From NCBI GenBank assembly GCA_963716745.1, contig OY970320.1, positions 32,001-96,000 of the forward strand: a DNA stretch of 64,000 bases, written 5' to 3'. Each line of letters opens with the position of its first letter. Within the stretch, counting starts at the first letter, position 1. Source of the stretch: an uncultured Gemmatimonadaceae bacterium (lineage in GTDB: Bacteria; Gemmatimonadota; Gemmatimonadetes; Gemmatimonadales; Gemmatimonadaceae). The notes beneath the pieces were generated by a model that saw only the letters and a list, made by a program, of their open reading frames with translations, was not told where the DNA came from and did not search any database. This document shows positions 2,223 through 21,733 of the stretch, in pieces. Both the position numbers and the translations under genes were made by a program.

Positions 2223-3226
2223 CCGAGTCCGCAGCGCCGGGGCTCACGCCCGGGCGCCGGGAGCGGTGGACGGCCGAGGCGGACAGCGATGTCCGCCTCG
2301 ATCTGCTTGTGGCCCGCCGGCTCGAGCTGTCGCGCACGCAGGCGGCGACGCTCATCGCGAACGGGTGCGTCACCGTGGCGGGGCGGCGTGAGAAGGCCAG
2401 TTACAAGGCGGAGCCGGGCGAGGAGATCGTGGTGGAGATCCCGTCGAGCGCCCGGCGCGAGGTGGGCGCGGAGAAACTCCCCATCGCCGTCGTGTTCGAG
2501 GACGACGATGTGCTCGTCGTGGACAAGGCCGCGGGCATGGTCGTGCACCCGGCACCCGGGAATTGGACGGGTACGCTGGTGAACGCGCTCAAGGGGCGCG
2601 GGAGTGCGCTCGCGGCGGCCGCTGGCGGCGAGCGCGAGGGGATCGTCCACCGCCTCGACAAGGACACCTCCGGGCTGCTTCTGGTGGCGAAAACGGACCG
2701 GGCGCACAAGGCGCTCGCCGGGGCGATGGCGCAGCGGAAGATCGTGCGGCGCTATGCCGCTCTGGCGTGGGGTCATCTCGAGACCGACCGGCTCACGGTG
2801 GACCGTCCGGTGGGGCGCAGTCCGCGAGACCGAAGGCTCATGGCAATCGTCAGTACAGGAAGGGCGGCGCGGACGGATTTCGTCCGACTCGCCCGGTTCG
2901 ACGCGGCCGATCTTTTGCGCGCGCACCTGCACACGGGGCGCACGCATCAGATCCGCGTCCACCTGGCGTCGATCGGCCATCCAGTGGCGGGTGATGACGT
3001 GTACGGCGGAGGCGGAGCGCGTCGATTGCTGGCGCTGCCGCCGAAGCGACACTTCCTCCACGCGGCCTGGCTGATCTTTCCGCATCCGGTGACCGGGGAG
3101 TCGATCGAGCTCCGCGCTCCGCTGCCCGAGGACCTCGTGCGCTCGCTCGCTGCGGCCGCGGGGACGGACACGCCACTCGACCCGGATCCGCTGGCCCAAT
3201 TTGGCTTCTACCGTCTCTCCGACTGA
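2219..3226 (+). CDS. RluA/RluD-family 23S rRNA pseudouridine synthase
   Basis: S4-like N-terminus (RLDLLVA...SRTQA), VDKAAGMVVHP, HRLDKDTSG, TGRTHQIRVH. Confidence 0.93.
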   Translation: MTESAAPGLTPGRRERWTAEADSDVRLDLLVARRLELSRTQAATLIANGCVTVAGRREKASYKAEPGEEIVVEIPSSARREVGAEKLPIAVVFEDDDVLVVDKAAGMVVHPAPGNWTGTLVNALKGRGSALAAAAGGEREGIVHRLDKDTSGLLLVAKTDRAHKALAGAMAQRKIVRRYAALAWGHLETDRLTVDRPVGRSPRDRRLMAIVSTGRAARTDFVRLARFDAADLLRAHLHTGRTHQIRVHLASIGHPVAGDDVYGGGGARRLLALPPKRHFLHAAWLIFPHPVTGESIELRAPLPEDLVRSLAAAAGTDTPLDPDPLAQFGFYRLSD

Positions 3227-3647
3227 CATCTCTGCCCGCCGGCTGGTGGTCTTCCGGCTGGGGGATACGTCGTACGGGATCGACCTGGGTGCGGTGCGGG
3301 AGATCCTGCGCGCGCGCCCGGCCACGCGTCTGCCCGGCGCACCGAAGGCGGTGGTGGGGCTGATCAACGTGCGCGGTGCGATCGTGACGGTGATCGATCT
3401 CGGCGTGGCGCTCAGAGTGCGCACGGCGCCGGCAGGCGGCGCCGTGATGCTCATCGAGCACGGGCCGAAGCTGGTGGGCGCGATGGTGGACGAGGTGCTG
3501 GAAGTGCAGCGCGCGCCGGACGAAGCGCTGGAACCGGCGCCGCTCGACGTGCAGGCCGGAGGCGCGGTGCGCGCCCTCGGCACGCGCGAGGGCGGCGTCG
3601 TGATCGTGCTGGACATTCATGATCTGCTTTCGCACATGCTCGCTTAA
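3201..3647 (+). CDS. cheW: CheW-like coupling protein
   Basis: LVVFRLG..YGI..VREI...LPGAP..VVGLINVRGAIVTVIDL; start codon uncertain (TTG). Confidence 0.88.
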   Translation: MASTVSPTDISARRLVVFRLGDTSYGIDLGAVREILRARPATRLPGAPKAVVGLINVRGAIVTVIDLGVALRVRTAPAGGAVMLIEHGPKLVGAMVDEVLEVQRAPDEALEPAPLDVQAGGAVRALGTREGGVVIVLDIHDLLSHMLA

Positions 3648-3660
3648 CCGAGAGGTGACG

Positions 3661-4023
3661 GTGTCCCATACGGTATTGGTCTGCGACGACGCGATCTTCA
3701 TGCGCACGATGATCTCCGACATCCTCCAGCAATCCGGCTTCGATGTGATCGGCGAAGCGGAGACGGGAGTGGAGGCCGTGGCGCAGTATCGCAAACTCAA
3801 GCCGGACCTCGTGACGATGGACATCGTGATGCCCGACATGGGCGGCATCGATGCCGTGCGCGAGATCACGAAGTTCGATCCGAACGCCCGGATCCTCATG
3901 TGCAGCGCGATGGGGCAACAGGCGCTGGTGGTCGAGGCGATCCAGGCGGGGGCGAAGGATTTCGTGGTGAAGCCGTTCCAGCCGAGCCGGGTGCTGGAGG
4001 CGGTGCAGCGGGTCCTCGGCTGA
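3661..4023 (+). CDS. cheY: CheY-like single-domain response regulator
   Basis: VLVCDDAIFMR, MDIVMPDMGG, MCSAMGQ, FVVKPF; GAGGTG RBS before the GTG start. Confidence 0.93.
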   Translation: MSHTVLVCDDAIFMRTMISDILQQSGFDVIGEAETGVEAVAQYRKLKPDLVTMDIVMPDMGGIDAVREITKFDPNARILMCSAMGQQALVVEAIQAGAKDFVVKPFQPSRVLEAVQRVLG

Positions 4024-4040
4024 CTTCCGGGGCCGCCCGC

Positions 4041-5903
4041 ATGGACCTCACGCGCTACGCCGATCTCTTCCTCACGGAGAGCCGCGAGCACGTCTCGGCG
4101 CTGAACCATCTCCTGCTCTCGCTGGAGCGCGCGCCGCGCGCCACGGAGCCGGTGGCGGGGATGTTCCGCGCGGTGCACACGGTGAAAGGCATGAGCGCGA
4201 CCATGGGCTACGGCGGCGTGACGGCGCTGGCGCACGAGATGGAGTCGTTGCTCGACCAGGTGCGGCAGAAAGCGCGCAAGGTGACGCCGGAGTTGATGGA
4301 CCTGCTCTTCAAGAGCGTTGACGCGCTCGAGAAGGCGATCGCGGCGGCGGTCGCGGGCACGAGTGATGATCCGGCGGCGCTCGTGATGGCGAAGACGCTG
4401 AAGGACTACGCCGAGGGGCGCCGCGCATTGGCGGGCGGCCGTCGCAAACCGCCCCCGAAGGCCGCGAAGTACAAGGGCAAGCGCGGCGTCGCGATCCGCG
4501 TGGTGCTCAATGACGGCATCGCGCTCAAGGGCGCGCGGGCGTTCCTCGTGGTGAAGCGCGCCGAGGACTTCGGGCGCGTCCTCGCGGTGGAACCGCCGAT
4601 CGACGCGCTGCAGCGCGAGGAGTTCGGCCGCGAGTTCATGATCCGTTTGGCGCCGAGCGTGGAGCCGTCGATCGCGGCGGAGGCGCTGCGCATGGCAGGC
4701 GATGTCGCGTCGGTGTCGATCGACGGCGCGGCGGTGAGCGACGCGCCGGAGAACGCGGCGCCGGGCGCGACGCGGCACGTGCGCATCGAGCTCACGCGTC
4801 TCGACGCGCTCATGAACCTCGTGGGCGAACTGGTGATCGCGCGCGGCCAACTGCAACAGCTCGCGGGCGTGACCGGCGATGCCGCGCTGGAGGAGACCGT
4901 CGCGCAGGGCGCGCGGCTCATCGGCGAGATGCAGGATGAGATCATGCGCTGCCGCATGGTGCCGGTGGCGCAGGTGTTCGACCGCTTCCCGCGCCTCGTG
5001 CGCGACGCGGCGCGCGCGTTGCACAAGGAGGTCTCGTTCACGGTGGAAGGGCAGGAGAGCGAACTGGACCGCTCGATGCTCGACGAGATCGGGGAACCGG
5101 TGATGCACTTGCTGCGCAATGCGGTGGACCACGGGATCGAGATGCCGGCCGAGCGCGAGGCCGCGGGCAAGCCGCGCGAAGGGGCGCTCAAGCTCTCGAT
5201 CTCGCGCGAACGCTCGGCGGTCACGATCCGCGTGAGCGACGACGGGCGCGGCATCGACCGCGCCCGCGTGCTGGCGAAGGCGCGCACGATGGGGCTGGTG
5301 CTGTCCACCGTGAAATCGCTGCCCGACGAAGAGCTGGTGCGGCTCATCTCGCGGCCGGGCTTCTCGACGGCCGAGCGCGTGACCGATCTGTCGGGGCGCG
5401 GCGTGGGGATCGATGTCGTGCTCACACGCGTGCGCGCGCTCGGCGGCTCGGTGGAGATCAGGACCGTGGCCGGGGAGGGCACGACCGTCACCGCGCGGCT
5501 GCCGCTCACGCTCGCGATCGTGCGCGCGATGCTCGCGCGCGTGGGTGAGGAGACGTACGCCGTGCCGATGACGCACGTGACCGAGACCGTGGAGCTCGAC
5601 GCCGCGGGCGTGCGCACCGTGCGCGGGCGCGAGGCGATCGTCCTGCGCGACGACGTGCTGCCGGTCGTGCGCCTCCGCAACCGGCTGTCGCTCGCGGCGT
5701 CGAGCGCGCCGATGCAGCAGGTGGTGATCGTGGAAGTGGGCGAACGCCACGCCGCGCTCGTGGTGGACGAACTCGCGGGACAGCAGGACATCGTGGTGAA
5801 GCAGTTCGACCCGGTGCGCGGCGGCATGCCGCTGTTCAGCGGCGCGACGATCCTGTCCGATGGGGCGCCGTCGCTGATCCTCGATGTCGGCAGCCTACTC
5901 TAG
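4041..5903 (+). CDS. cheA: CheA histidine kinase (HPt-P2-dimerisation-HATPase-CheW)
   Basis: MFRAVHTVKGMS (HPt His), LDALMNLVGELVI, HLLRNAVDHG, SDDGRG, GFSTA..SGRGVGIDVV, C-terminal CheW domain. Confidence 0.96.
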   Translation: MDLTRYADLFLTESREHVSALNHLLLSLERAPRATEPVAGMFRAVHTVKGMSATMGYGGVTALAHEMESLLDQVRQKARKVTPELMDLLFKSVDALEKAIAAAVAGTSDDPAALVMAKTLKDYAEGRRALAGGRRKPPPKAAKYKGKRGVAIRVVLNDGIALKGARAFLVVKRAEDFGRVLAVEPPIDALQREEFGREFMIRLAPSVEPSIAAEALRMAGDVASVSIDGAAVSDAPENAAPGATRHVRIELTRLDALMNLVGELVIARGQLQQLAGVTGDAALEETVAQGARLIGEMQDEIMRCRMVPVAQVFDRFPRLVRDAARALHKEVSFTVEGQESELDRSMLDEIGEPVMHLLRNAVDHGIEMPAEREAAGKPREGALKLSISRERSAVTIRVSDDGRGIDRARVLAKARTMGLVLSTVKSLPDEELVRLISRPGFSTAERVTDLSGRGVGIDVVLTRVRALGGSVEIRTVAGEGTTVTARLPLTLAIVRAMLARVGEETYAVPMTHVTETVELDAAGVRTVRGREAIVLRDDVLPVVRLRNRLSLAASSAPMQQVVIVEVGERHAALVVDELAGQQDIVVKQFDPVRGGMPLFSGATILSDGAPSLILDVGSLL

Positions 5904-5913
5904 GGGAGCGCGC

Positions 5914-6534
5914 ATGTCCGATCTTCTGTCGCTGACGAAAGTGGAACTCGACGCGCTCCGCGAGACGGCGAGCATCGGCGCCGGCCACGCCGCGACCGCG
6001 CTGTCGCTCATGACGAACAGCCGGATCATGATCTCGGTGCCGCACATCACGATCGCGGCGCTCGAGGACGTGCCGCAGCAGATCGCGGACGAGGAAGAGC
6101 CGATCGCGGCCGTCATGATGCAGATGCTCGGCGATCTCACGGGACGGTCCCTGCTCGTATTCCCGCGGGCCACGGCGCTGCGCCTCGCGCAGCTGATGCT
6201 GCGGCGGCCGCGCGACGGAACCGCCCCCTTCGCCGAGCTCGAGCAGAGCGCGCTCAAGGAGGCCGGCAATATCCTGAGCGGCGCGTATCTCAACGCGCTC
6301 AGCGATTTCCTGGGCCTCATGCTGCTGCCGTCGCCGCCGAGCCTCGTGGTGGACATGTCGGCCGCGGTGCTCACCACCGCGCACGCGCAGTTCGGCGCGG
6401 ACCGCGACATGGTGTTCGCGGTGGAGACGCAGTTCCTGTTCGAGGACCAGGCGGACCACCTGCGCGGCTTCTTCCTGCTGCTGCCCGACTTCGCGTCGTT
6501 GCGCGTGATCCTGCGCGCCATCCGGATCGCGTGA
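5914..6534 (+). CDS. cheC: CheC-family CheY-P phosphatase
   Basis: DALRETASIGAGHAATALS and SALKEAGNIL repeats; position directly after cheA. Confidence 0.9.
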   Translation: MSDLLSLTKVELDALRETASIGAGHAATALSLMTNSRIMISVPHITIAALEDVPQQIADEEEPIAAVMMQMLGDLTGRSLLVFPRATALRLAQLMLRRPRDGTAPFAELEQSALKEAGNILSGAYLNALSDFLGLMLLPSPPSLVVDMSAAVLTTAHAQFGADRDMVFAVETQFLFEDQADHLRGFFLLLPDFASLRVILRAIRIA

Positions 6535-9248
6535 ACAGCCCCTCGTCCCCCGTCTCGCAGCGCGACCGCGACATCCTGCGGTCGTTCGCGCGGCGCATCG
6601 ATCCATCGGATGCGGGGGCGCATAACAACCTCGGCGTGCTGTATTACAACAAGGGGATGTACGCCGAGGCGGTGTCGAGCTTCGAGCAGGCGCTGGAGCT
6701 GGATCCGAAGATGCAGGTCGCCCAGCGCAATCTCGAGGTCGCATACTTCAACACCGGCTACTACGACCGGCGCGTGGCCGAACTGCGAGATCGGCTGCGC
6801 TCGCATCCGCACGACCGCGACGCGCGCTGGGAGTTGGGACGCGCGTACGCCGCGCTCGGCGATGTGCCCGAAGCGGTGGCGGAGTTCACGGCGATCCTCG
6901 AGCATCATCCCGACGACGCCGGCGCCATCGTGCAGCTGGGTCTCGCGGAGAAGGCGAGCGGCGACCTCGAGCACGCGCAGCGCTGGTTCGAGCGCGCGCT
7001 GGCGCTCGAGCCGAAGAGCCCGCTCATGAGCTTCTACATCGGCGAAGTGCTGTACAACCGCGGGCTGAACGAGGAAGCGCTCGTCGCACTGCGCCGCTCG
7101 ATCGACATCAATCCCGACAACTCCGACGCGCACTATCTGCTCGGCTTCGTGCTGGGCGACCTCGGACGCCACGAGGAGGCGCGTGCCGCGACGAAGCGCG
7201 CGATCCAGCTCAATCCGTCGCTGTCGCGCGCGCAGGCGAATCTGTCGATCGACCGTTACAACGCCGCGAAGTACGAGGAGCTCGTGCCGCAGCGGCACGA
7301 GCGGCGGTCGTCGCAAATGGAGGTGGCCGCTGAGGGTGGCCTCGCGCACTACAACCTGGGCCTCGCGTTCCGGCAGAAGGGTTACTACGCGGAAGCGCTG
7401 CGCGAATACCGGCTCGCACTCGAGCGGGAGGAAGACCGCGCGCTGGTGCTCCAGGCGATGGCCGAGGTGCACCTGCTCAAGCGCGATCCCAAGTCGGCGA
7501 TCGAACTGTACGACCGCCTGCTCGAAGAGGAGAGTGAGAGCCCCAAGCTCTGGTGCGAGCGCGGGGTCGCGCTGCATCAGGAGGGTCGGCATCAGGAAGC
7601 CGCTGAGAGCTATCGTCGCGCGTTGTCGCTCGACGCGGCGTACGCCATCGCGCACAACAACCTGGGCGTCGCGGAATATCACGGCGGGAACACCGACGCG
7701 GCGATCGATGCCTTCCGCGCCGCGCTCGCGGCGCATCCGGGCTTCGTGAAGGCGTGGCTCAATCTCGCGCTGCTGCTCTATCAGGGAAAACGGCTCCAGC
7801 TCGCGCTCGAAGCGTACCGTCAGGGCCTCACCGTGGATCCGGAGCAGCCGGTCGCGTGGAACGGCATCGGTCTCGTGCTGGCGGAGCTCAAGAAGTACGA
7901 GGACGCGCGCAACGCGTTCGGGCGTGCGATCCACACGCGGCCGAACTATGCGGAGGCGCACTACAACCTGGGCTTCACGCTCTCGAACCTCGGCGATTTC
8001 GAAGGCGCGCTGCGCGCGACGCGGCGCGCGCTGGAGCTGGACCCGTTCTACGTGCGGCAGAAGTTCGAGCTCGCGATCGACCTCGAGTACGAGGATCCCG
8101 ATCTCTCGATCGCGCCCGCGCTCGGCAATGCGCAGCGCGTGGAGCAATCGGTGGAGACGTTCGCGTTCGACGCGGCGCGGCTCGATGCGCTCTTTACCGA
8201 GCTGAAGCCGCTCGCGCCGGCGCCGGTGGAGACGGCCGCCGTGCCGCTCGAGACGGCGTACGCCATGGCGGTGGAGTATCTGTCGAAGGGCATGCTCGAC
8301 CGCGCCGCGGCCGAAGTGAACCGCGCGCTGGTGCGCGGCGCGAACACGGGCGAGGGTCTGATCCTGCTGGGCGACATCTTCCTGCGGCAGGGGCTGCATG
8401 GCGAAGCGCTCGAGCGCTACAAGAATGCGCGGAGCGTGACGGCCAATGCGGCGCGCGCACTCGCCGGCGAGACGCGCGCGCTGCTGCTGCTGGGGCGCGC
8501 GGAGCAGGCGCGCGCGGTGGCCGAGGAACTGCTCATCGCGGATCCGGCGACAGTGGAATCGATCCTGCTCGTGGCGAGCGCGCGCGCCGATGCCGGCGAT
8601 CCCGCGGCGGCGCGCGAGCTGCTCAAGAACGCGCGCCGTCTCGCGCCCGCGCGCGCCGACGTCCTGCGGCAGTTCGGCGACGTGGCGCGCGCCGCGGGCG
8701 ATGTGGAGGGCGCGATCGCGGCATACAAGAACGCGCTCGACCTCGATCCCGACGTCGCAGTGGTGCACTACGAACTCGGGCGGTTGCTCGCCGAGAGAGA
8801 CGACGCCACGGGCGCCGAGACCGAGTTGCTCGCCGCGCTGGAGGCGGTGCCGACGTACGTGGAGGCCACCCTCGCGCTGGCGCAGGTGCGCCGCCGCTTC
8901 GGCCGCGCGAAGGACGCCGTGCCGCCGCTCGTGGACCTGCTGCGGCGCGATCCGTACAACGTGGAGGCGCTGCTCGCGCTCGCCGAGACGCTGCTCGAGC
9001 TGGACCGGCCGCGCGATGCGGCGATCTCGATCGAACGCGTACTGCGCTTCGACCCGCGGCACGTAGGCGCGCTCTTCTTCCACGGCGTGCTCCTCGCGGA
9101 CCAGCACCGCTACCGCGAGGCGATCGGGGAATGGGAGCGCGTGGTGGAGCTGGAGCCCGACGGCGAGTTCGCCAAGAACGCACGTCGCGAGTCGCGCACC
9201 GCGTCCGACCTGCTGCGGATCTTCCGCCACCGGCAGGAGGCGAGCTGA
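6531..9248 (+). CDS. Large cytoplasmic multi-TPR protein (905 aa)
   Basis: Many TPR repeats (AHNNLGVLYY, AHYNLGLAF, AWNGIGLVL...ALELDP); no signal peptide seen. Confidence 0.9.
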   Translation: MNSPSSPVSQRDRDILRSFARRIDPSDAGAHNNLGVLYYNKGMYAEAVSSFEQALELDPKMQVAQRNLEVAYFNTGYYDRRVAELRDRLRSHPHDRDARWELGRAYAALGDVPEAVAEFTAILEHHPDDAGAIVQLGLAEKASGDLEHAQRWFERALALEPKSPLMSFYIGEVLYNRGLNEEALVALRRSIDINPDNSDAHYLLGFVLGDLGRHEEARAATKRAIQLNPSLSRAQANLSIDRYNAAKYEELVPQRHERRSSQMEVAAEGGLAHYNLGLAFRQKGYYAEALREYRLALEREEDRALVLQAMAEVHLLKRDPKSAIELYDRLLEEESESPKLWCERGVALHQEGRHQEAAESYRRALSLDAAYAIAHNNLGVAEYHGGNTDAAIDAFRAALAAHPGFVKAWLNLALLLYQGKRLQLALEAYRQGLTVDPEQPVAWNGIGLVLAELKKYEDARNAFGRAIHTRPNYAEAHYNLGFTLSNLGDFEGALRATRRALELDPFYVRQKFELAIDLEYEDPDLSIAPALGNAQRVEQSVETFAFDAARLDALFTELKPLAPAPVETAAVPLETAYAMAVEYLSKGMLDRAAAEVNRALVRGANTGEGLILLGDIFLRQGLHGEALERYKNARSVTANAARALAGETRALLLLGRAEQARAVAEELLIADPATVESILLVASARADAGDPAAARELLKNARRLAPARADVLRQFGDVARAAGDVEGAIAAYKNALDLDPDVAVVHYELGRLLAERDDATGAETELLAALEAVPTYVEATLALAQVRRRFGRAKDAVPPLVDLLRRDPYNVEALLALAETLLELDRPRDAAISIERVLRFDPRHVGALFFHGVLLADQHRYREAIGEWERVVELEPDGEFAKNARRESRTASDLLRIFRHRQEAS

Positions 9249-10675
9249 TGGCGATCGAAGGCCCGCTCCGCGAACTCGGCATCCACGATGTGTTCCAGCT
9301 GCTGGACCTGAGCCGGAAGACCGGCACGCTCACGGTCACGTCGGTGCTGCGCGACAACCAAGGCACCGTGTACTTCGATCGCGGCGGCGTGCTGTCGGCG
9401 TCGATCAGGAGCAATCCGCACCGGCTGGGCGAACTGCTGCTGCGCGCCGGCAAGATCACCGAGGGCGATCTCACGCGCATGCGCGAGCAGCAGCGTCGCG
9501 AGGGGGACAAGCGTCAGCTCGGAGCGATCCTGGTCGAGGCCGGTGCGCTGTCGCGCAAGGAGCTCGAGCGCCAGGTGCGCATCCAGGTGGAAGAGGTCGT
9601 GTTCGAGATGATGTCGTGGCGCGAGGGCTTCTTCTCCTTCGAGGAGGGCCAGGTCGCGGACGCGCCGATCGAGGCGGACATCCGCATCTCCACCGAATCG
9701 CTGCTCATGGAGGGTGCGCGCCGCATCGACGAGTGGTCGCTCATCGAGGGCAAGGTGCCGAACCTCGGCGTGGTGCCGGTGCTCGCCACCATGGAGAGCG
9801 ATCACGCGGGCGCGCTCGATCTGTTGCCGAAGGAGTGGGAGGTGCTCGCGCAGATCGACGGCGCGCGCGATCTGCGCGAGATCTCGAGCAGCACGTCGAT
9901 GAGCGAGTTCGACGTGGCGCGCGTGATCTACGGTCTCGTGACGACCGGCATCGTGGAATTGCGGCCGGGCACGGGAACGCCACCGCCACCGCCCGCGGTG
10001 CCGCCGCGCCGTGCGACGCCGCCGGCCCGCGCCGCCGAGGCGCCGGATGTGGTGACACTGCCCGGTTCGCTGCTACACACGCCGTCGCTCGAACACACGG
10101 GCATGCACCGCGTGGCGGCGATCGCGGAACCGCAGGGCGTGCCGATCATCACGGACGCGCCGCCCCCCGCGCCACGCGCGTCGCCGCCGACGCCGCCGGC
10201 GCCCGCGCCGGCACCGCGCGCATCGCGCGCCACGCGCAATATGCGCAGCACCCGGCTGACGCAGACCGTGAGACTCGACGGCGACGACGCCGTCGCGCAT
10301 CTCGAGCGTGCCCACGCCGCGCTGCGCGACGGCGCCATCGAAGCTGCGGTGGCGGCCGCGACGGCCGCCGTTGACGCGAGCGACGGCTCCGTGGAGGCGC
10401 GCACGGTGCTGGCACGCGCGCAACTCAAGGCGGGCCTCGTGGACGAGGCGTTCGACACGGTGTGCGCTGCGCTCGAGCGGGATGCGCTCAACCCCGCGCT
10501 CTACCTGCTGCTGGGCGCGTGCGCCGCGTCGCGCGGTGCGCTCGCCGACGCGGTGGCCGGGTGGGAGCGCTACCAGCGGCTCGCGCCGGACGCGGCCGAC
10601 ACCTCGCGTGTGCGCGCGGTGGCGGACGCGGCGGCGCGCCTGCGCGACGCGATGAAGGAGCTCGGCGATGTCTGA
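9248..10675 (+). CDS. DUF4388-like protein with MshEN-like motifs, Pro-rich linker and C-terminal TPRs
   Basis: MAIEGPLRELGIHDVFQLL..SRKTGTL...WREGFFSF...LLMEGARRIDEW; internal RLGELLLRAG motif; start overlaps the upstream stop (TGATG). Confidence 0.8.
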   Translation: MAIEGPLRELGIHDVFQLLDLSRKTGTLTVTSVLRDNQGTVYFDRGGVLSASIRSNPHRLGELLLRAGKITEGDLTRMREQQRREGDKRQLGAILVEAGALSRKELERQVRIQVEEVVFEMMSWREGFFSFEEGQVADAPIEADIRISTESLLMEGARRIDEWSLIEGKVPNLGVVPVLATMESDHAGALDLLPKEWEVLAQIDGARDLREISSSTSMSEFDVARVIYGLVTTGIVELRPGTGTPPPPPAVPPRRATPPARAAEAPDVVTLPGSLLHTPSLEHTGMHRVAAIAEPQGVPIITDAPPPAPRASPPTPPAPAPAPRASRATRNMRSTRLTQTVRLDGDDAVAHLERAHAALRDGAIEAAVAAATAAVDASDGSVEARTVLARAQLKAGLVDEAFDTVCAALERDALNPALYLLLGACAASRGALADAVAGWERYQRLAPDAADTSRVRAVADAAARLRDAMKELGDV

Positions 10676-12370: not shown

Positions 12371-12377
12371 GCGCGAC

Positions 12378-12986
12378 GTGTCCCTCGTCAACTACGCCAC
12401 CCGCGAGATCACCTGCAAGATCGTCTACTACGGCCCCGGCCGTTCGGGGAAGACGACCAACTTGCATTACATTTACGAGCAGGTGCCGCGCGACCGCAAA
12501 GGGAAGATGGTCTCGCTCGCGACCCAGACCGATCGCACGCTCTTCTTCGACTTCCTGCCGTTCGACCTCGGGATGATCTCCGGTTTCACGACGCGCTTCC
12601 AGCTCTACACGGTGCCGGGCCAGGTGTACTACCACACCACTCGGAAGCTCGTGCTCCAGGGCGCCGACGGCGTGGTGTTCGTGGCCGACAGCCAGGCGCG
12701 CCAGCTGCAGGAGAACGTCGAGAGCATGCAGGACCTGCACACGAACGCCGCCGAGCACGGGATCGATGTGCGCACCATGCCGCTGGTCATCCAGTACAAC
12801 AAGCAGGACCTGCCGTCCGAGATGATCCTGGGCGTGCCGGCGCTGGAGGATGCGCTCAACTTCCGCGGCGTGCCGTCGTTCGCCGCCGATGCGCTGCACG
12901 GCGCCGGCGTGTTCGAGACGCTGCGGGGCATCGCCGAACTCGTGCTCCGGCGCCTGAGTGCCGCGGCGCCCGCGGGGAACCGGTGA
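12378..12986 (+). CDS. mglA: MglA-family small Ras-like GTPase
   Basis: [26 protein letters not shown] (G1), [10 protein letters not shown] (G2 with intrinsic Arg), LYTVPGQ (G3), NKQD (G4). Confidence 0.93.
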
Positions 12987-14914
12987 CGGCCGAACTGGAT
13001 CCGCGCTACCGCTTCGAGAACTACATCGTCGGATCGGCCAATCGTCTCGCGGTCTCCGCCGCGAAGGCGGTGGCCCAGGCCCCGGGCACCGCGTACAACC
13101 CGCTGTTCATCTACAGCAGCTCGGGGCTGGGCAAGACGCACCTCATGATCGCCGTCGGCCACATGGCGATCCAACTGCAGCCCAACCTGCGGTCGCTCTA
13201 CATCACGCTCGACGAGTTCGTGGAGGAACTCACCGCCGCCGTGTCGTCGGGCACGATCGAGAATTACAAGCAGCGCTTCCAGGACGTGGACATCCTGCTG
13301 CTGGACGACGTCCAGTTCCTCGCCGGCCGGCGCGAGACGCAGAGCGAGATGCTGCGGCTGTTCAACGCGCTGCAGCGCGCGGGCAAGCAGATCATCCTCA
13401 CGAGCGACCGCCCACCGAACGAGATCGCCGACCTCGACGAGCGCCTCATCTCGCGCTTCGCCGGCGGACTCGTGGTGGACGTCGGCCTGCCCGATTACGA
13501 GACGCGCGTGGCCATCCTGCGCGCGAAGTGCGAGGAGCGGAAGGAGACGTTCGAGACCGGCGTGCTGGACGAGGTCGCGCGCATGAACTTCTCGAACGTG
13601 CGCGAGCTGCAGGGCGCGCTCAACCGCCTCATCGCGTGCCAGTCGCTCGGCGAGGCCGAGGTCACGGTGCGGAACGTGCGCGAGTTGCTCGGTGAGAAGC
13701 CCGACGCCGGCCCCGTGATGGCGCAGGCGCCCGCGCGGGGCGAGGAATTCGCGAGCTTCCTCAGCGACCTGAGCGATGTGGTGGCGCAGCACATCGACAC
13801 GTGGCGCGTGCGCGTCGTGGAAGCGATGACCTACTGGCATCAGCTCGGTTACGGCACCACGCTGCTCGAGCGCACGCTCGAACAGTCGGAGGAGCCGGAT
13901 GTCGACGCGCTGTTGCAGGGCTACGAGGCGAACATCGCGCGGCTCCGCGCGCTCGAGCAAGAAGCGATGCGCTACGATCCGGTGCTCGCCGAGTCGGAGG
14001 TGTTCAAGGATCCCGAGCGCGTGGGCGAGGCGGAATTGCTCGTGGCGCGGCAGATGGGCGGCGCGGAACCGCCGCCCGGCCCCGATCCCGAGCTGACGCG
14101 TGCCACGTTCGAGGTCGGGCCATCGAACCAACTCGCGGTCCACGCGGCCGACACGGTCGTGCTCGAGCCGGGCAGAAAGTACAATCCGCTCTTCCTGTAC
14201 GGCCCGCCGGGCGTGGGCGTCACGCACCTGCTGAACGCGCTCGCGAACGAGATGATCACGGCGGGCGGCGGCAAGCGGCCCGTCGCGTGCGTGAACGCGC
14301 AGCAGTTCATCGACGAACTGATCGTCGCGCTGCAGGAAGGCACGATCGAGCGGTGGCGGGCGCGCTACCGCCTCGTGGACGCGCTCCTGATCGACGATGT
14401 GCAGCTCTGCGCGACGGGCGAGCGCACGCAGGAAGAACTCTTTCACGTGTTCAACAGCTTGTACTCCGCCGGCAAGCAGGTGGTGCTCGGTGCCGACCGC
14501 GCCCCGCGCCAGATCGAGCGTCTCGAGGACCGGCTGCGCTCGCGCTTCGAGGGCGGACTCGTGGTGGAGATCCAGCCGCCCGACCATTCGCTGCGCGAGA
14601 AGCTGTACGCGCGCATGTTCGCCGCCGCGGGACAGCACGCCGATCGCGTGCTCGTGGATTTCCTGTCGGCGCGCGCCGTGGCGAACGTCGCGGAACTCGC
14701 GGCCACGGTCGACCGGCTCGTGAAGGCGGCGGGCGTGGTGGGCGTTCCGCTCAATGCATCGTTCGCGCGCAAGGAGCTCGAAGGCGGCGGCATCGCGCCC
14801 GCGCCGGCCCGCGCGATCGACGGGCGCGAGGCCGACAGCTTCTTCCTCGACGAGGAGAAGGTGGTCTGGGACTGGCCTGACGTGGCTGGCCGCGCGATCG
14901 AGGACCTCCGGTAA
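12983..14914 (+). CDS. DnaA/Hda-related protein with two tandem AAA+ (DnaA domain III) modules; no domain I or IV
   Basis: Twice: F....G..N.LA, YNPLF.Y, Walker A, LL.DDVQ, F..FN.L...GKQ, DR.P, RL.SRF.GGLVV. No C-terminal DnaA HTH. Confidence 0.85.
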
Positions 14915-16541
14915 TGGCGATCAAGGGCAGTCTCAAGGAGGCGTCGCTCCCCGACGTCCTGCAGCTCCTCGCCATGGGCCAGAAGACCGGCTGCCTGTCG
15001 GTCGCCGACCGCAACAACTTCGGCTACATCTACTTCGACCGCGGCCGCATCTCGTACGCGTCGATCGTGAACCGGCGCGACCGGCTGGGCGACCTGCTCG
15101 TGAAGCACGGCGTCGTGACGCAGCTCGAGCTCGACGTCGCGATCGAAGCGCAGAGCAAAGCGCACCGCGGCAAGCGCCTCGGCGAGATCCTCATCGAGCA
15201 GCAGATCCTCACGCGCGAGGAGCTGCACCGCTACATCCGCGTGCAGATCGAGGAAGCCGTGTACTACCTCTTCACTTGGACGCAGGGGACGTTCAGCTTC
15301 GAGGCGGACATGCGCCCCGAGGAGCACGACGTCCTCGTGTCGATCAATCCCGAATCGCTGCTGCTCGAAGGCGCGCGGCGCGTGGACGAGTGGAGCCTGA
15401 TCGAGAAGAAGGTGCCGAGCTTCGACATCATCTTCGAGGTGGACCGGACGCGGCTGGCGCAGAGCGAAGCGCAGCTCACGCCGGCACAGGAGCAGCTGAT
15501 CCCGCTGATCGACGGGCGGCGCGACGTGACGACGCTCATCGATGCGTCGGGCATCGGCGAGTTCGAGGTAGGGAAGGCGCTCTACGCCCTCGCGACCGCC
15601 GGCTATCTGCACCGCGCCGGCAAATCTCGCCCCGTGGACGACGGCGTGCGCGAGGCGCGCGTGGAGGAGCACCGCAATCTTGGCGTCGCGTTCTACAAGA
15701 CGGCGATGTTCGAGGAGGCCACGCGCGAGTTCCGGCGCGTGGTGGAGCTGAATGAGACCGACGTGCCGGCGCGCTTCTATCCTGGGGCTCGTCGCGATGC
15801 GGGAAGGGAAGTGGAGTGAGGCGGTGCTCACGCTCCGCGAGGCGGGCGCGCAGCCCAACGTGCGCCCGGCGATTTTCCACAATCTCGCCTACGCGCTCGA
15901 GCGCATGGGCCACTACGACGACGCGCGCGAGGCGCTGCAGGAGGCGATCCAGCGCGGCGGCCAGGAAGATCCGCGCATCCGCACGTCGCTCGGCGTGCTC
16001 GCGCTCAAGAGCGGCGACGTGGATGAGGCCGATGCGCTCGCTCACGGCGTCGCGTCTCCTCTGGGCCAAGCGGTCGCCGTCGCCGGCGTGGTTCCACTAC
16101 GCCGCGCTCGCGGCGGCGCTCACCGGCGAACTCGACCGCGCGCTCGAGATCGTGGCCGAAGGCGTGGAGCTGCACCCGCACGCCGCCGTGCTCTACAACA
16201 CGCTCGCCGCGGTGCACGAGCGCCGCGGCGACATGGCCGCCGCCGCGCGGGCTGCGGAAAGCGGGCTGCACGAGGACGGCTCGATCCCGCAGCTCTTCAA
16301 GAATCTCGGCGACTGCCTCTACCGCGCGTCGCGCTACGACGAGGCGCTCGAGGCGTTCCAGCGGGCGGTGAAGCTCGATCCCGCGCTGGGCGACGATGTG
16401 TACTTCAAGCTCGGCAACATCCGGTTCAAGTGGCAGGAGAAGGAGCAGGCGCTCGCGTACTGGGAGCGCGCGCTGGCCCTGAATCCCGAGAACGAGGTGA
16501 TCCGCACGAATCTCGATCTCGTGCGGACGATGCCCGAATGA
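14914..16541 (+). CDS. Second DUF4388-like protein with MshEN-like motifs and C-terminal TPR array (apparent frameshifts at ~15781 and ~16040)
   Basis: [19 protein letters not shown]...LLLEGARRVDEW; TPRs continue through three frames, each joined by removing one base. Confidence 0.78.
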
Positions 16542-17360
16542 TCGCCGGCGCTCCGATGGCCGACGCCGATTTCGCGGCGCTCACGGCGAAGATCACGCGT
16601 GAGCGCGGCTTCGGCTGCGCGAGCTATAAGGAGAAGTGTCTGCGCCGCCGGATCGCGGTGCGCATGCGCGCGCGCGGCGTCCACACCTATCGCGACTACG
16701 CGCGCGTGCTCGACAGCGACGGCGCGGAGTACGAACGTCTTCTGGACGCGCTCACGATCAACGTGACGCGCTTCTTCCGGAATCCGGAGGCGTGGGAGGC
16801 GCTGGACGCGTTGGTGCTCGGACCCCTCATGACCGCGGGGCGGACGCCGCTGCGGATCTGGAGCGCCGGGTGCGCCTCGGGCGAGGAGCCGTACACGCTC
16901 GCGATCCTGCTGCAACGCCGCGCCACGCTGCTCGGCAAGAAGGCGCGGGCCGTTCGAGATCGTGGCGACCGACATCGATGCCGCGAGCCTCGAAGCCGCC
17001 GGGCGCGCCGTGTACGAGTCGTCGACGCTCGTGGACATGCCCGCCGATCTGCGCTCCGCGTACGTGACGGGCGACGGTCCCTTCACGATCGGTGCCGCGG
17101 TGCGCGCATCCGTGCGCCTGCGGCGCCACGATCTGCTGGGCGACGCGCCTCCCGGCGGTCCGTTCGATCTGATCGTCTGCCGCAACGTCACGATCTATTT
17201 CGACCGCCGCTCGCAGGAGGCGCTGCTCGAGCAATTCCACGGCGCACTCGCGCCCCTGGGCGTGCTCTTCCAGGGCAAGGTGGAGACGCTCACGGGCGCG
17301 GCGCGCGCGCGATTCGAGATCGTGGATGCGCGTGAACGCATCTTCCGCCGCGCCTCGTGA
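16538..17360 (+). CDS. cheR: CheR methyltransferase (apparent frameshift at ~16945)
   Basis: TINVTRFFRN, IWSAGCASGEEPYTLA, then ATDID and DLIVCRNVTIYFD in the next frame. Confidence 0.92.
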
Positions 17361-17839
17361 AGGAGATCCGCGTGCACGTCGCCGAGGCCGCCGTCGCTCA
17401 GGGGGACGCGATCATCGCCAGCGTGGGGCTGGGGAGCTGCGTCGCCATCGTGCTGCACGACGCCACCGCGAAGGTGGGCGGAGTCGCGCACGTGCTCCTG
17501 CCGAGCGACTCCATGGCGCGCGACCGCAGCAACCGCGCGAAATTCCCCTCGAGCGCGGTGCCGCTGCTGCTGGAGCAGATGCGCGCGCTCGGCGCGCTCG
17601 ACCGCCGGATCTCGGCGCGGCTCGTGGGCGGCGCGAGCATGTTCACCTCGCTCCTCTCGTCGGGCGGCATGCAGATCGGCGAGCGCAATCTGCTCGCGAG
17701 CCGCAAGGCGCTCGCGCTCGCGCGCATCCCGGTGATCGGCGAGGATGCCGGCGGCGGGCACGGCCGCAGCGTGTACCTCCACACCGGCGACGGGCGCCTG
17801 GAAGTGCGCTCGATGGCGAGAGGCAATGTCCTCCTCTAG
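17357..17839 (+). CDS. cheD: CheD receptor glutamine deamidase
   Basis: GLGSCVAI (catalytic Cys), AHVLLP (His), GGASMF, IGERN, EDAGG. Confidence 0.93.
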   Translation: MKEIRVHVAEAAVAQGDAIIASVGLGSCVAIVLHDATAKVGGVAHVLLPSDSMARDRSNRAKFPSSAVPLLLEQMRALGALDRRISARLVGGASMFTSLLSSGGMQIGERNLLASRKALALARIPVIGEDAGGGHGRSVYLHTGDGRLEVRSMARGNVLL

Positions 17840-18950
17840 TTCGCTCCGCACCGTCCTCGTCGTGGACGACAGCGCGTTCATGCGCAAGATCGTCGTGGAT
17901 CTCATCGACGGGTCGGGCGAATTCCGCGTGATCGGCACCGCGCGCCATGGCGCCGACGCGCTGAAGAAGGTGCGCGCGCTGGAACCCGACATCGTGACGA
18001 TGGACATCGAGATGCCGGAGCTCGATGGGCTCGCCGCGCTCGAGCGGATCATGCGCGATTCGCCGCGCCCGGTCGTGATGCTCAGTGGCGCCGCCACCGG
18101 CGGCGCACACGATCCCGTGCTCCGCGCGCTGGAGCTCGGCGCCGTGGACTTCCTGCGCAAGCCGTCGGGTCCGATCAGTCTCGACCTCGCCACGGTGCGC
18201 GAGCCGTTGCTCGAAGCGCTCCGCGCCGCGGCCGAAGTGAATCTCCGCGGCATGACCGCGCTCTCCGAGACGGTGGCCGGCGCCTCCGCGGCGAAGCATC
18301 CCGCGGCGGAGGGCGCGGCGTCGTGCGTCGTCGCGATCGCCAGCTCCACGGGAGGCCCGCGCGCGCTCGCCGAGGTCATCCCCGGCTTGCCGCGCACGCT
18401 CGACGCCGCGGTCGTGGTCGTGCAGCACATGCCCTCCGGATTCACGCGGAGTCTGGCCGAGCGATTGAACGCGCACAGCCGCTTGCGGGTGAGCGAGGCA
18501 CAGGACGGACAGCTGCTGCGGCGCGGTCATGTGTACGTCGCGCCGGGCGGCCGCCATCTGCGTCTGCGCGCGGGCACGGGTGGCGTACTACTCGCGCTCG
18601 ACGACACGCCGCCCGTGTGGGGCGTGCGCCCCGCCGCGGATCCGCTCTTCCGCTCGGCGGCGGAGTGCCTCGGCAACGCGGTCATCGGGATCGTGCTCAC
18701 CGGCATGGGCCGCGATGGCGCCGAAGGGTTGCGCGCGATCCGCGACGCCGGCGGCACCGGCATCGCGCAGGACCGCGCGACGTCGATCATCTTCGGGATG
18801 CCGCAGGCGGCGGCAATGGCGGGCGGCGCGACGCGTGTCCTGCCGCTCACGGAGATCGCCGCGGCCGTCGCCGAGATCGTCGCGCTGCGGCGCTCCGACA
18901 TCACCGCGCCGCGCGCCCGGCGCACGGTGGCCCGCAAGGAGGCGCCATGA
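17826..18950 (+). CDS. cheB: CheB methylesterase with N-terminal receiver domain
   Basis: VVDDSAFMR...MDIEMP; SSTGGP, VQHMP, LTGMGRDG catalytic motifs. Confidence 0.95.
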   Translation: MSSSSSLRTVLVVDDSAFMRKIVVDLIDGSGEFRVIGTARHGADALKKVRALEPDIVTMDIEMPELDGLAALERIMRDSPRPVVMLSGAATGGAHDPVLRALELGAVDFLRKPSGPISLDLATVREPLLEALRAAAEVNLRGMTALSETVAGASAAKHPAAEGAASCVVAIASSTGGPRALAEVIPGLPRTLDAAVVVVQHMPSGFTRSLAERLNAHSRLRVSEAQDGQLLRRGHVYVAPGGRHLRLRAGTGGVLLALDDTPPVWGVRPAADPLFRSAAECLGNAVIGIVLTGMGRDGAEGLRAIRDAGGTGIAQDRATSIIFGMPQAAAMAGGATRVLPLTEIAAAVAEIVALRRSDITAPRARRTVARKEAP

Positions 18951-19414
18951 GTCTCATCGACGTTACCCATGGCGCTCCGCTCACGGGACTCGCGGAATTC
19001 CTGCTGTTCCGCGTCGGCAAGGAGTACTTCGCCATGCCGCTCGCGAACGCGGAGGAGGCGGTAGAGCGTCTCGAACGTCACTCGCTCCCCGGCATGCCGC
19101 GCGACATGGCGGGCGTCGCACAGTACCGGGGCATGCGGCTCCCGGTGTACGGCGCGGAGCAAGTGCTCGAGGTGGCCCGCGATGGAGGCGACGAGGATGT
19201 CACGCTCGTCGTGCGCGGGAAGGGTGGCAAGGTGGGCGTCATCGTGGATGATGTGGAGGATGTGATCATCGTGGATCTCTCGAGCGTACGCGCCGTGCCC
19301 GGCGCCACCATTGGCGAACCCGTGCTCTCGGGCGTGATCCCGCGTGGCACCGAACTCGTGGCGGTGTGCGATCCCGACGCGCTCGTGCGCGCTTGCCTCG
19401 GAGCCCGCGCATGA
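18947..19414 (+). CDS. cheW: Divergent CheW-like protein
   Basis: LLFRVGKEYFA...LPGMP..MAGV..YRG..LPV...VGVIVDDV. Confidence 0.75.
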   Translation: MSLIDVTHGAPLTGLAEFLLFRVGKEYFAMPLANAEEAVERLERHSLPGMPRDMAGVAQYRGMRLPVYGAEQVLEVARDGGDEDVTLVVRGKGGKVGVIVDDVEDVIIVDLSSVRAVPGATIGEPVLSGVIPRGTELVAVCDPDALVRACLGARA

Positions 19415-19887
19415 GCGCCGTGATGCAGCAGGTGGTGACGTTCCGCCTCGGCGACGACCGGTTCGCCGGCAATGTCGCGGCCGTCGAGCGCGTGCTGCGC
19501 TGGGTGAAGCCCACCACGCTGCCCGGACTGCCCGCGTGGCTCGACGGCGTGATCGAGCATCAGGGACGCGTGGTACCGGTGGTGGACCTCCGCACGCGCT
19601 TCGGCCTCGAGCGCCGCGAGCCGAAGCCCGAGACGCGCATCATCCTCTTCGCATCGGGCGACGAATGGATCGGCGCGGTGGTGGATGCCGTGCTCGAGGT
19701 CGTGGCCATTCCCGCCGACCGCGTGGCCGAACCGCCCAAGGTGTTCCGCGGGCTGCGCGCCGAGTACCTGCGCGGTCTCGTGCGGCAGGACGACGGCCTC
19801 ATCATCTTCCTCGACGTGCCGCACCTGCTCAATGCGAGCGAGCGCGTCGAACTCAAGAAGGCGGCCAAGGCGGCGATAGATGGCTGA
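19411..19887 (+). CDS. cheW: CheW-like protein
   Basis: VVTFRLG...LPGLPAWLDGVI..QGRVVPVVDLRTRFG...IGAVVDAV. Confidence 0.88.
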   Translation: MSAVMQQVVTFRLGDDRFAGNVAAVERVLRWVKPTTLPGLPAWLDGVIEHQGRVVPVVDLRTRFGLERREPKPETRIILFASGDEWIGAVVDAVLEVVAIPADRVAEPPKVFRGLRAEYLRGLVRQDDGLIIFLDVPHLLNASERVELKKAAKAAIDG

Positions 19888-20740
19888 CGAAGCGAGCGGG
19901 TTCCGTCAGCAGTACGATGCGATCGCGGCGCGCCTCGAGGACGCGGGTGCGCCGGATGCGCGCGATGCGATCAAGGGCGAGATCATCGCGCTGTTCAAGC
20001 AGCTGGAACAGGAGATCGCGCAGATGTCGGTGTTGCGCGACAATGTGAAGAAGCTCGTCGAGCGGTGGAAGCAGCTGCAGCAGTCATCGGCGCCGTCGAA
20101 CGCGCCCGAATTCGCGAGCGAACGGCCGGTAGTCGCCGACCACATCGGTGCGTCCACGTTCGTGGAGAAAGGCTGGAGCCTCATCTCGCTCGGCGATCAC
20201 GAAGGCGCCGAGCGCGCACTGCTCAAGGCACTCGAACTGTCGCCGAACGATCCGCAGACCGAGTCGCTGCTCGGCTGGGCCCAAATGCTGCAGGAGAAAT
20301 ACGACGAAGCGCTGCTGAACTTCCAGAAGGTGCTCATGCGCCAGCCGACGAACTCGCTGGCGCGCATCAACCTCGGCTACATCTGTCTCAAGAAGAAGAT
20401 CTTCGGCGAGGCGATCGAGCATCTGTCCAAGGCGATCCGCCTCGACAACGATCGCAAGGCCACGCTGTACGCGCACTTCTACCTCGGCCTCACCTATGCC
20501 GAGCGCGAGATGTACGAGGACGCGCAGACCTTCTTCCGCAAGACGCTGTCGATCGGGCCGAATCTGATCGAAGCGTACTACGAACTCGGCCGTGCGCTCT
20601 GGTTCGAAGGAAAGCAGGACGATGCGAAGCAGGCGTGGCGCGACGGACTCGCCGCCAACAAGTTCAATCCATGGGGGAAGCGCTGCGGCGAGATGCTGAA
20701 GCACGTCGAGGACGGGGGCGTGCCCTCGCGATCGTCCTAG
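19880..20740 (+). CDS. Coiled-coil + TPR protein
   Basis: N-terminal heptad-like helix, then TPRs (ALELSPND, ARINLGY, AHFYLG, EAYYELG). Confidence 0.85.
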   Translation: MADEASGFRQQYDAIAARLEDAGAPDARDAIKGEIIALFKQLEQEIAQMSVLRDNVKKLVERWKQLQQSSAPSNAPEFASERPVVADHIGASTFVEKGWSLISLGDHEGAERALLKALELSPNDPQTESLLGWAQMLQEKYDEALLNFQKVLMRQPTNSLARINLGYICLKKKIFGEAIEHLSKAIRLDNDRKATLYAHFYLGLTYAEREMYEDAQTFFRKTLSIGPNLIEAYYELGRALWFEGKQDDAKQAWRDGLAANKFNPWGKRCGEMLKHVEDGGVPSRSS

Positions 20741-21714: not shown

Positions 21715-21733
21715 CTGCCCACCGCATCGTTGC

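Follow-up and report, generated by a model that had tools for sequence, protein, structure and literature searches.

The Frz chemosensory pathway of Myxococcus xanthus is built from a CheA-CheY fusion (FrzE), a cytoplasmic receptor (FrzCD) and a dual-receiver protein (FrzZ). It acts on MglA, which together with MglB sets cell polarity in this organism, and mglA does not lie near the genes of those partners (PMC4316618). The same paper records that MglA and MglB genes occur now and then near genes for PATAN proteins (PMC4316618), and of the published statements found this is the nearest to the arrangement reported here. Here we describe a block of 18 genes in a 64,000-nucleotide stretch of DNA from an uncultured Gemmatimonadaceae bacterium (GenBank assembly GCA_963716745.1, contig OY970320.1, positions 32,001 to 96,000 of the forward strand; we call the whole stretch the window). 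The block occupies positions 3201-20740 of the + strand, joins a set of chemotaxis genes to genes for MglA, roadblock proteins, PATAN proteins, tetratricopeptide repeat (TPR) proteins and a tandem DnaA-like ATPase, and looks like an undescribed signalling machine. By analogy with known systems, it may be one signalling module that feeds phosphorylated CheY (CheY-P) and cyclic di-GMP (c-di-GMP) into the MglA polarity switch, a reading to which we give an even chance.

Both the Frz system with MglA, MglB and RomR and the block described here pair a chemosensory pathway with MglA and a roadblock-type GTPase-activating protein (GAP). Here, however, everything is encoded in one block, CheA has no fused receiver, and CheC and CheD are present; the block holds no receptor gene and no dual-REC protein, no protein of the RomR, RomX, FrzZ or FrzS type was seen in it, and it adds three roadblock proteins, two PATAN proteins and a DnaA-derived ATPase. 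The chemotaxis gene set itself (CheA, CheW, CheY, CheC, CheD, CheR and CheB) is that of the CheC/CheD pathways of Bacillus, Thermotoga and archaea, which we take to be class F1 of Wuichet and Zhulin. It differs from them in that the che genes are split around the polarity cassette, with no flagellar or archaellar genes nearby, that the profile matches stay under their cutoffs, and that CheA is equally near to the T. maritima (320 bits) and E. coli (318 bits) proteins, a comparison that does not separate chemosensory classes. A first-pass annotation, made from the sequence alone, had known of no characterisation of this combination, and we likewise found no published description of the block or of its tandem ATPase in the literature searched, whose scope excluded subscription journals and closed supplements.

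Gene content and packing of the block

Genes of the block were identified by Pfam and NCBIfam profile scans of the + strand open reading frames (ORFs). From the 5' end, the order is cheW-cheY-cheA-cheC, a large TPR protein (TPR905), PATANa, a TPR-roadblock fusion (Robl1), Robl2 and the MglB-like Robl3, and it continues in the 3' half with mglA, dnaA2 (a tandem of DnaA domain III), PATANb-TPR, cheR-cheD-cheB-cheW-cheW and a last TPR protein (TPR286). The 18 co-directional and tightly packed genes of the first-pass annotation are matched by this Pfam order and by the junction spacing, and the profiles confirm its placement of the che genes in two blocks around the inner Mgl, roadblock, PATAN, TPR and DnaA-like genes.

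All coding signal in the block is on the + strand, as it is throughout positions 1-24000 when judged by codon position, in a window of about 70% G+C. With the start codons chosen here, neighbouring genes overlap by 1-14 nt at 12 junctions out of 17; the remaining five are gaps of 7-17 nt. Within the block, a consensus scan returned no promoter-like site; the only one it gave falls within the 298-nt gap 3' of pepMA, a downstream gene. Terminator-like sites in 2000-21999 are not enriched, with 6 found against 5.4 expected from shuffles.

The block is conserved across Gemmatimonadota

We scanned one genome per species with a search seeded by a 10-sequence dnaA2 alignment and obtained at least 80 loci; the counts below are from the matches listed, beyond which there may be tandem homologues in other phyla. 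The tandem form was found in 31 of these (L001-L031), all in metagenome-assembled genomes of Gemmatimonadota, including one Longimicrobiales locus and one 5.4-Mb chromosome. Loci L032-L080 match one AAA+ domain only and were taken as the ordinary dnaA of other phyla. As far as their contigs reach, the 31 loci have the same gene order, between rluD and the division and cell wall (dcw) cluster, with a dnaA2 that is 37-72% identical to that of the window in its best segment. The same order in at least 31 species-level genomes puts the arrangement far beyond chance. The gene rluD lies upstream in 18 loci, and rsmH, the first gene of the dcw cluster, lies downstream in 16 of the 31.

Presence of individual genes was established by mapping the window proteins (tblastn) onto the 31 loci, counting for each gene only the loci whose contigs cover its position. 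The genes cheY, cheA, cheC and TPR905 are present in 19/19 loci each and cheW1 in 18/19. The inner genes are similarly constant: PATANa (24/24), the TPR part of the TPR-roadblock protein (26/26), Robl3 (29/29), mglA (30/30) and PATANb-TPR (27/27, as one ORF in each). Robl1 and Robl2 were detected in 23/28 and 22/28 loci, the others being under the tblastn threshold though room for the gene remains. TPR286 was found in 19/20 loci and pepMA in 20/20, and the distal chemotaxis genes in fewer: cheR in 20/27, cheD in 20/26, cheB in 18/24 and cheW3 in 15/21.

These lower counts have a phylogenetic pattern. Six loci (L019, L020, L023, L027, L028 and L030) are without cheR, cheD, cheB and the two distal cheW genes, and a further one (L016) is without cheR alone. 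In the ATPase tree the six reduced loci form one group (SH-aLRT 100) beside lineages that carry cheR-D-B-W-W, so that this unit was lost once. The reduced clade keeps cheY-A-C, the inner genes and TPR286, and cheW1 is present in two of the three reduced loci that reach its position. In this same clade, which belongs to Gemmatimonadales, the first TPR protein is much shorter (about 380 aa) and MglA is 36-43% identical to that of the window.

Conservation is uneven along the block. The median identities to the window, taken over the 12 complete loci, are 87% for CheY, 80% for MglA and 71% for PATANb, next to 64% for rluD, 59% for rsmH, 48% for the ATPase and 32-47% for the roadblock and CheW proteins. 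Across 19 loci, CheY has a mean column identity of 90%, an almost invariant C-terminal half, and its phospho-acceptor residues in place. The block is vertically inherited across the phylum at a fixed chromosomal position. The first-pass annotation had named synteny across Gemmatimonadota as a check on its proposal, and the gene order is indeed conserved; the fixed place beside the dcw cluster and the clade without cheR-D-B-W-W had escaped it.

MglA and its roadblock and TPR companions

MglA proteins are marked by a G3 motif (TxxGQ) in which Thr replaces Asp, and by an intrinsic switch-I Arg. The Ras-like polarity GTPase of the block (202 aa, positions 12378-12986; all genes of the block are on the + strand) matches M. 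xanthus MglA (5ymx) over its full length with 247 bits, residues 1-195 being aligned, and T. thermophilus MglA (3t12) with 226 bits. Its P-loop, TVPGQ and TDRTLFFDF (with the switch-I Arg) are present, and the last two align with identical counterparts in M. xanthus MglA. By these sequence features the GTPase is a true MglA, and the MglB-like roadblock gene adjacent upstream is predicted to encode its cognate GAP.

This roadblock protein, Robl3 (171 aa, 11855-12370), lies directly upstream of mglA and matches the Pfam family Robl_LC7 with 27.2 bits, M. xanthus MglB (6h5b) at E 9.6e-7 and the NCBIfam MglB model at E 1.4e-4, under the cutoff of the latter. The preceding Robl2 (115 aa, 11511-11858; Robl_LC7 24.4 bits) has weak matches to generic solved roadblock proteins only (E ~0.005). 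The third, the TPR-roadblock fusion Robl1 (10668-11514), is spread over two frames here, with its TPR part in that of 10668 and Robl_LC7 in that of 10819, and is a single 280-aa ORF in locus L003.

Two TPR proteins frame these genes at a distance. TPR905 (905 aa, 6531-9248) matches Pfam TPR families in up to 15 stretches, and TPR286 (286 aa, 19880-20740), the last gene of the block, also matches Pfam TPR families; both are free of transmembrane-like segments and should be cytoplasmic. In M. xanthus, the 14-TPR protein SgmX is an effector of MglA; it brings PilB to the pole, and it co-occurs with PATAN proteins (PMC11580455). TPR905 is alike in kind, as a large cytoplasmic multi-TPR protein associated with MglA, and differs in being encoded inside the putative operon. 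Matches between repeat proteins are unspecific, and the likeness is meant in this general sense.

PATAN proteins with an MshEN-type motif

The two DUF4388 genes listed by the first-pass annotation were borne out by Pfam, and both encode an MshEN-type motif that it had overlooked. PATANa (475 aa, 9248-10675) matches DUF4388 with 110.1 bits (cutoff 25); its PATAN domain contains a degenerate MshEN-like insert and is joined by a Pro-rich linker to a TPR-like region at the C-terminus. NF053729, the NCBIfam model of a c-di-GMP motif, scores 32.5 bits, under its cutoff of 38. PATANb-TPR (14914-16541, about 540 aa in relatives) matches DUF4388 with 135.7 bits (cutoff 25) and continues, after an MshEN-type motif at residues 54-114, into TPRs. 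Here NF053729 reaches 48.8 bits, over the cutoff, and residues 54-114 match V. cholerae MshE (5htl) by sequence at E 3.5e-6. In an AlphaFold2 model of PATANb (mean predicted local distance difference test score, pLDDT, 86.1), we found a local fold match to c-di-GMP-bound MshE over 57 columns, with a root-mean-square deviation (rmsd) of 1.1 Å and 40% identity; a fold search with the model returned no other solved fold at E ≤ 0.001. PATANa also varies in length, with 475 aa here against 327-387 aa in relatives, the surplus being a proline-rich stretch between PATAN and the TPR-like end.

The double motif is recognisable in all PATANa (18/18) and all PATANb (28/28) sequences. The PATANa of most relatives has Pro where motif I calls for its first Arg, and the PATANb of the window has a Gln for the Gly of motif II. 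On sequence and model evidence, binding of c-di-GMP by PATANb is plausible; from its sequence, binding by PATANa is doubtful.

In cyanobacteria, PatA, PixE and PixG join PATAN to a receiver. PATAN-REC regulators of this kind bind the pilus ATPase PilB1 (PMC9090330). The founding member of the PATAN proteins, PatA, has division factors as binding partners and makes the divisome less stable (PMC7380572). The proteins of the block share with them the PATAN/DUF4388 domain and a setting of CheY-like signalling. They differ in that PATAN is fused to TPRs and not to a receiver (Pfam found no REC domain on either protein, and both end in TPR-like regions), that CheY is a separate gene, and that the helical insert matches MshEN. 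A second likeness is to MshE/PilB-type ATPases controlled by an N-terminal MshEN domain for c-di-GMP, where the MshEN-type double motif also occurs beside an ATPase; in the block, however, the ATPase is a DnaA-type AAA+ protein and not a secretion ATPase, and the motif sits in PATAN proteins encoded alongside.

A tandem DnaA-type ATPase

The gene dnaA2 (12983-14914) encodes a protein of 643 aa that matches Bac_DnaA with 363 bits in two stretches, D1 (about residues 5-236) and D2 (about 368-598), both of them DnaA domain III. Its structural model has two AAA+ domains joined by a helical linker (257-358) and a predicted disordered C-terminal tail, in which an EKxVWxWP..R.IEE motif is conserved (W631 in 272/277 sequences). 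D1 superposes on domain III of B. subtilis DnaA (8bv3) with a template modelling (TM) score of 0.94, an rmsd of 1.5 Å and 44% identity, and scores 213 bits to DnaA against 30 bits to Hda. D1 and D2 are 38% identical to each other. In a tree that included 20 true DnaA domains, all D1 domains formed one group (support 100/99), all D2 domains another (98/84) and the true DnaA domains a third (100/94), and this separation makes the duplication older than the dnaA2 family.

Domains I and IV of DnaA are absent, and the Pfam hits are only to P-loop and AAA-type ATPase families, plus one sub-threshold hit to Beta_protein. The protein does pass the NCBIfam DnaA model (516.7 bits, cutoff 343.9), in two stretches of which the best covers positions 102-336 of 437. 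Apart from its two DnaA-type AAA+ domains it has no part of DnaA: it is not a replication initiator. The earlier suggestion that the signal might go on to the cell cycle through the DnaA-like protein loses ground here, with the DNA-binding domain IV and domain I missing and ancestry alone left in its favour.

We then counted the ATPase motifs in 277 full-length sequences, which are not independent of each other. The Walker A Lys is present in 277/277 D1 and 254/277 D2 domains, the Walker B Asp in 277/277 and 271/277, and the sensor II Arg in 264/277 and 180/277 (aligned column), while the Box VII Arg is found in 219/277 D1 (R158) and 264/277 D2 (R521) domains. These counts, together with the Val that D2 of the window has for its Walker A Lys, make D1 the constant nucleotide site.

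Hda consists of a single domain III with an N-terminal clamp-binding motif, and reaches into the ATP site of DnaA. In dnaA2 we find the Walker A and B, sensor II and Box VII motifs of DnaA domain III and Hda. Unlike DnaA, it carries two copies in tandem with a helical linker, no domain I, II or IV, and a family-specific C-terminal motif; unlike Hda, it is a tandem and not a single domain, scores only the 30 bits given above, and shows no clamp-binding motif at its N-terminus, judged by eye.

The best 120 matches to dnaA2 are 56-97% identical, and every organism name given among them is Gemmatimonadaceae or Gemmatimonas. Among cluster representatives, full-length relatives extend down to about 30% identity, and a search from one distant relative returned names only from Gemmatimonadales and Gemmatimonadota. 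Gemmatimonadota are also commonest in Atlas clusters of matching length; when the linker (residues 240-365) was searched against the Atlas, no usable match resulted.

Related ATPases occur in other architectures. One cluster representative (P0202) combines the tandem ATPase with a C-terminal REC domain, and two others (P0165 and P0168) have an N-terminal MshEN and a DnaA-type ATPase. A search from P0165 returned giants of the P0165/P0168 kind, one relative of which is named Fermentibacteria, and many DnaA-ATPase plus TPR proteins of 1360-2150 aa named Sumerlaeota and Hydrogenedentota; other relatives from this search combine a DnaA-type ATPase with a zinc ribbon or HEAT repeats. TPR, MshEN and REC are thus fused elsewhere to the type of ATPase beside which they are encoded here, and the partners in the block match those of the fusions. 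It appears that dnaA2 is the Gemmatimonadota branch of a wider, unstudied group of DnaA-type ATPases fused to TPR, MshEN or REC. The large fusions (P0165, P0168, P0391-P0396 and P0400-P0508) make up an apparently unstudied set, many members of which are annotated as replication initiators.

The chemotaxis proteins

The first cluster opens with cheW1 (148 aa, 3201-3647; Pfam CheW 104 bits), whose TTG start overlaps the end of rluD and which has an alternative start at 3246. It is followed by cheY (120 aa, 3661-4023), a stand-alone receiver (Pfam REC 106 bits) with D9, D10, D54, S82 and K104, and by cheA (620 aa, 4041-5903), which has domains P1-P5 (Pfam Hpt, P2, H-kinase_dim, HATPase_c and CheW). 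The cluster ends with cheC (206 aa, 5914-6534; Pfam CheC 65 bits in 2 stretches), a CheY-P phosphatase by family. In the distal cluster, cheR (16538-17360) is recognised through CheR_N and the CheR profile, of which positions 1-57 match in one frame and 64-193 in the next. Then come cheD (155 aa, 17372-17839; Pfam CheD 90.9 bits), cheB (374 aa, 17826-18950), with a receiver (REC 78 bits) and a methylesterase domain (CheB_methylest 220 bits), the divergent cheW2 (155 aa, 18947-19414; Pfam CheW 74 bits), whose median identity to relatives is 32%, and cheW3 (158 aa, 19411-19887; Pfam CheW 115 bits).

The best NCBIfam models are archaeal for CheA and CheY and Thermotogales for CheC and CheD, all under their curated cutoffs: archaeal-type CheY scores 132.7 bits (cutoff 200), CheC_Thtogales 164.7 (cutoff 250) and CheD_Thtga 121.8 (cutoff 240). 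For CheB, PRK00742 scores 392 bits, over its cutoff of 293.

A proposed route from CheA to MglA

We propose that receptors encoded elsewhere would control CheA together with the three CheW proteins, with CheR, CheB and CheD providing adaptation and CheC dephosphorylating CheY-P. CheY-P would then act on the PATAN-TPR and roadblock proteins and not on a flagellar switch, for which the PatA-type PATAN-REC fusions offer a precedent. A second input, c-di-GMP, could enter through the MshEN-like insert of PATANb. The adaptors, the MglB-like GAP and the two further roadblock proteins would set the nucleotide state of MglA and its pole, and MglA-GTP would switch on a polar machine together with TPR905, an effector arm that may resemble SgmX in kind. 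By precedent this machine is likeliest a type IV pilus; by position, the division or budding apparatus would be the alternative. In this scheme dnaA2 could serve as an ATP-driven assembly switch or scaffold, with D1 as its conserved nucleotide site and with its presumed regulators (TPR, MshEN and REC) encoded beside it.

Weighing the alternatives

Three of the 18 genes are not intact ORFs in this copy. TPR-roadblock, PATANb-TPR and cheR carry four +1 shifts in total, near positions 10995 (TPR-roadblock), 15780 and 16037 (PATANb-TPR), and 16950 (cheR), which we mapped by aligning intact homologues of relatives to the window across the frame changes. The first-pass annotation, sound in its gene content, had overlooked that these members of its 18-gene operon are broken. 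In every related locus the three genes are single ORFs, of about 280, 540 and 272 aa respectively. One could suspect from the shifts that the block is a decaying, non-functional locus in which the three genes are pseudogenes. Yet, shifts aside, they retain 48-85% identity to intact homologues in three close relatives, and close relatives of the ATPase reach 86-97% identity. Other genes of the window, essential ones included, are split likewise: ileS (window 1-1195) has Anticodon_1 in one frame and DUF5915 in the next, the alanine racemase gene alr (47258-48401) has its N and C domains in overlapping ORFs, and a metalloenzyme gene (48248-49566) is split in the same manner. As housekeeping genes are affected too, the shifts speak of poor sequence quality and not of decay; frequent single-base sequence errors are the likelier cause, and we rejected pseudogene decay as very improbable. 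A different idea is that the block serves in defence against phages, as an island centred on an AAA+/STAND-like ATPase and with TPR proteins as its sensors. An ATPase with TPRs is a common defence architecture, and PADLOC returned weak matches to DrmD (26 bits) and mad8 (23 bits), but none was meaningful among the 8 proteins scanned. The block is moreover vertically inherited at a fixed position across the phylum, unlike mobile defence islands, and has chemotaxis and polarity genes as partners; for these reasons we rejected the idea and give it practically no credence.

The main rival to a single module is a flagellar pathway that merely shares the site: two systems, in which an ordinary flagellar chemotaxis operon of the Bacillus/Thermotoga/archaeal type was split by an inserted Mgl-PATAN-TPR-ATPase cassette, CheY-P goes to the motor only, and the inner genes act independently. 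The presence of CheC and CheD fits it, as do the archaeal and Thermotogales models that match best, and CheR, CheB and CheD require classical receptors. In addition, cheR-D-B-W-W was lost as a unit in one clade, which indicates modularity, and cultured Gemmatimonas are described as flagellated; a literature search on budding and motility in Gemmatimonas yielded nothing of use. What counts against two systems is that cheY-A-C accompanies the inner genes in 19/19 loci (18/19 for cheW1), including the clade without the adaptation genes, that no junction has a gap above 17 nt, that no flagellar gene was found in the scanned window ORFs or in the related loci, and that CheY is the most conserved gene of the block, suggesting several fixed partners. 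We regard this rival as serious and, on balance, unlikely. The position of the block raises another option, in which the module would be a controller of division or the cell cycle that places or times the divisome (in budding or asymmetric division) or modulates true DnaA. The Box VII Arg is kept (R521 in 264/277 and R158 in 219/277 sequences) and dnaA2 could in principle reach the ATP site of DnaA as Hda does. The locus always lies just upstream of the dcw cluster, with rsmH following pepMA and an exported TPR protein in 16/31 loci; in the window this cluster begins with rsmH at 23992 and runs on into ftsI, the mur ligases, murG, ftsA and ftsZ; and PatA, as noted above, offers a link between a PATAN protein and the divisome (PMC7380572). 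Adjacency to dcw is not function, however, dnaA2 has no DNA-binding domain and no clamp-binding motif seen by eye at its N-terminus, D1 is far closer to DnaA than to Hda (213 against 30 bits), and the precedents for MglA are motility machines. A controller of division is, in our judgement, improbable. Quite improbable too is the bolder idea that dnaA2 founds a new class of non-initiator DnaA-type switches, controlled by CheY-P and by c-di-GMP via PATAN and coupled to MglA, so that the block would be a chemosensory controller of the cell cycle and polarity and not of movement. If true, environmental sensing would be tied in Gemmatimonadota to polar growth, budding, division or the licensing of true DnaA.

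Several points weigh against the single module feeding the MglA switch. We infer co-transcription of the block genes from their spacing only, and this copy has frameshifts in three of them. Flagellar and archaellar pathways are the typical setting of CheC and CheD, which leaves room for a plain swimming role, and the loss of the adaptation genes without the rest shows that the two che blocks are separable. A scan of window ORFs, which was not exhaustive, found no gene for a receptor (methyl-accepting chemotaxis protein) and no pilus, flagellar or gliding gene, and none of these was found in the related loci either. The D2 Walker A Lys is a Val in the window and its 11 closest relatives (14204-14230, residues 408-416), and the REC domain of P0202, a single cluster representative, seems to be without the usual acceptor Asp. 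The strict 24-mer MshEN motif, as defined in PMC5013675, is matched in 2/28 PATANb and 0/18 PATANa sequences.

Neighbouring genes and other features of the window

The block is preceded by ileS, a DksA-type zinc-finger gene, lspA and rluD, and the first possible cheW start falls within the end of rluD. Downstream, pepMA encodes a Peptidase_MA_2 protein and is accompanied by a gene for a 632-aa TPR protein (20671-23911 for the two, + strand). Both proteins have signal-peptide-like N-termini, and the pair, although conserved as neighbours, is probably not part of the cytoplasmic module.

Further along the window we noted several features of other kinds. Between ftsZ and ftsY there is an ORF of 599 aa (40070-41869) without a Pfam match, with a G+C of 79/61/84% by codon position, which overlaps ftsY (41755-42825) by about 110 nt. 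A hybrid REC-HisKA-HATPase_c kinase of 405 aa is encoded at 52429-53646 with no obvious partner nearby. At 54299-56515 lies a radical-SAM methylthiotransferase-like protein (UPF0004 and Radical_SAM) with a C-terminal ComFB domain, overlapped by a second MiaB-like ORF (53355-54887); ComFB is a recently described family of receptors for cyclic dinucleotides (c-di-NMP; PMC12448109). Finally, a single ORF of 754 aa (57665-59929) holds a metallo-beta-lactamase-fold domain and a complete fructose-1,6-bisphosphatase, and may be a true fusion or two genes merged by sequence error.

Meaning for the biology of Gemmatimonadota

Detailed knowledge of chemosensory control over MglA polarity comes only from Myxococcus, and there it took years of genetic work to find the link. 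In Gemmatimonadota the presumed partners are encoded together throughout the phylum, and the gene order gives a parts list that can be tested. To the Myxococcus model the block would add further roadblock proteins, PATAN-TPR adaptors that probably have a site for c-di-GMP, and a DnaA-type ATPase with two AAA+ domains; public records widely mislabel the family of this ATPase as the replication initiator. Little is known of the cell biology of Gemmatimonadota, although they are common in soil. Because the block keeps a fixed place next to the division genes, the idea that sensing is linked to division in these bacteria can be put to the test.

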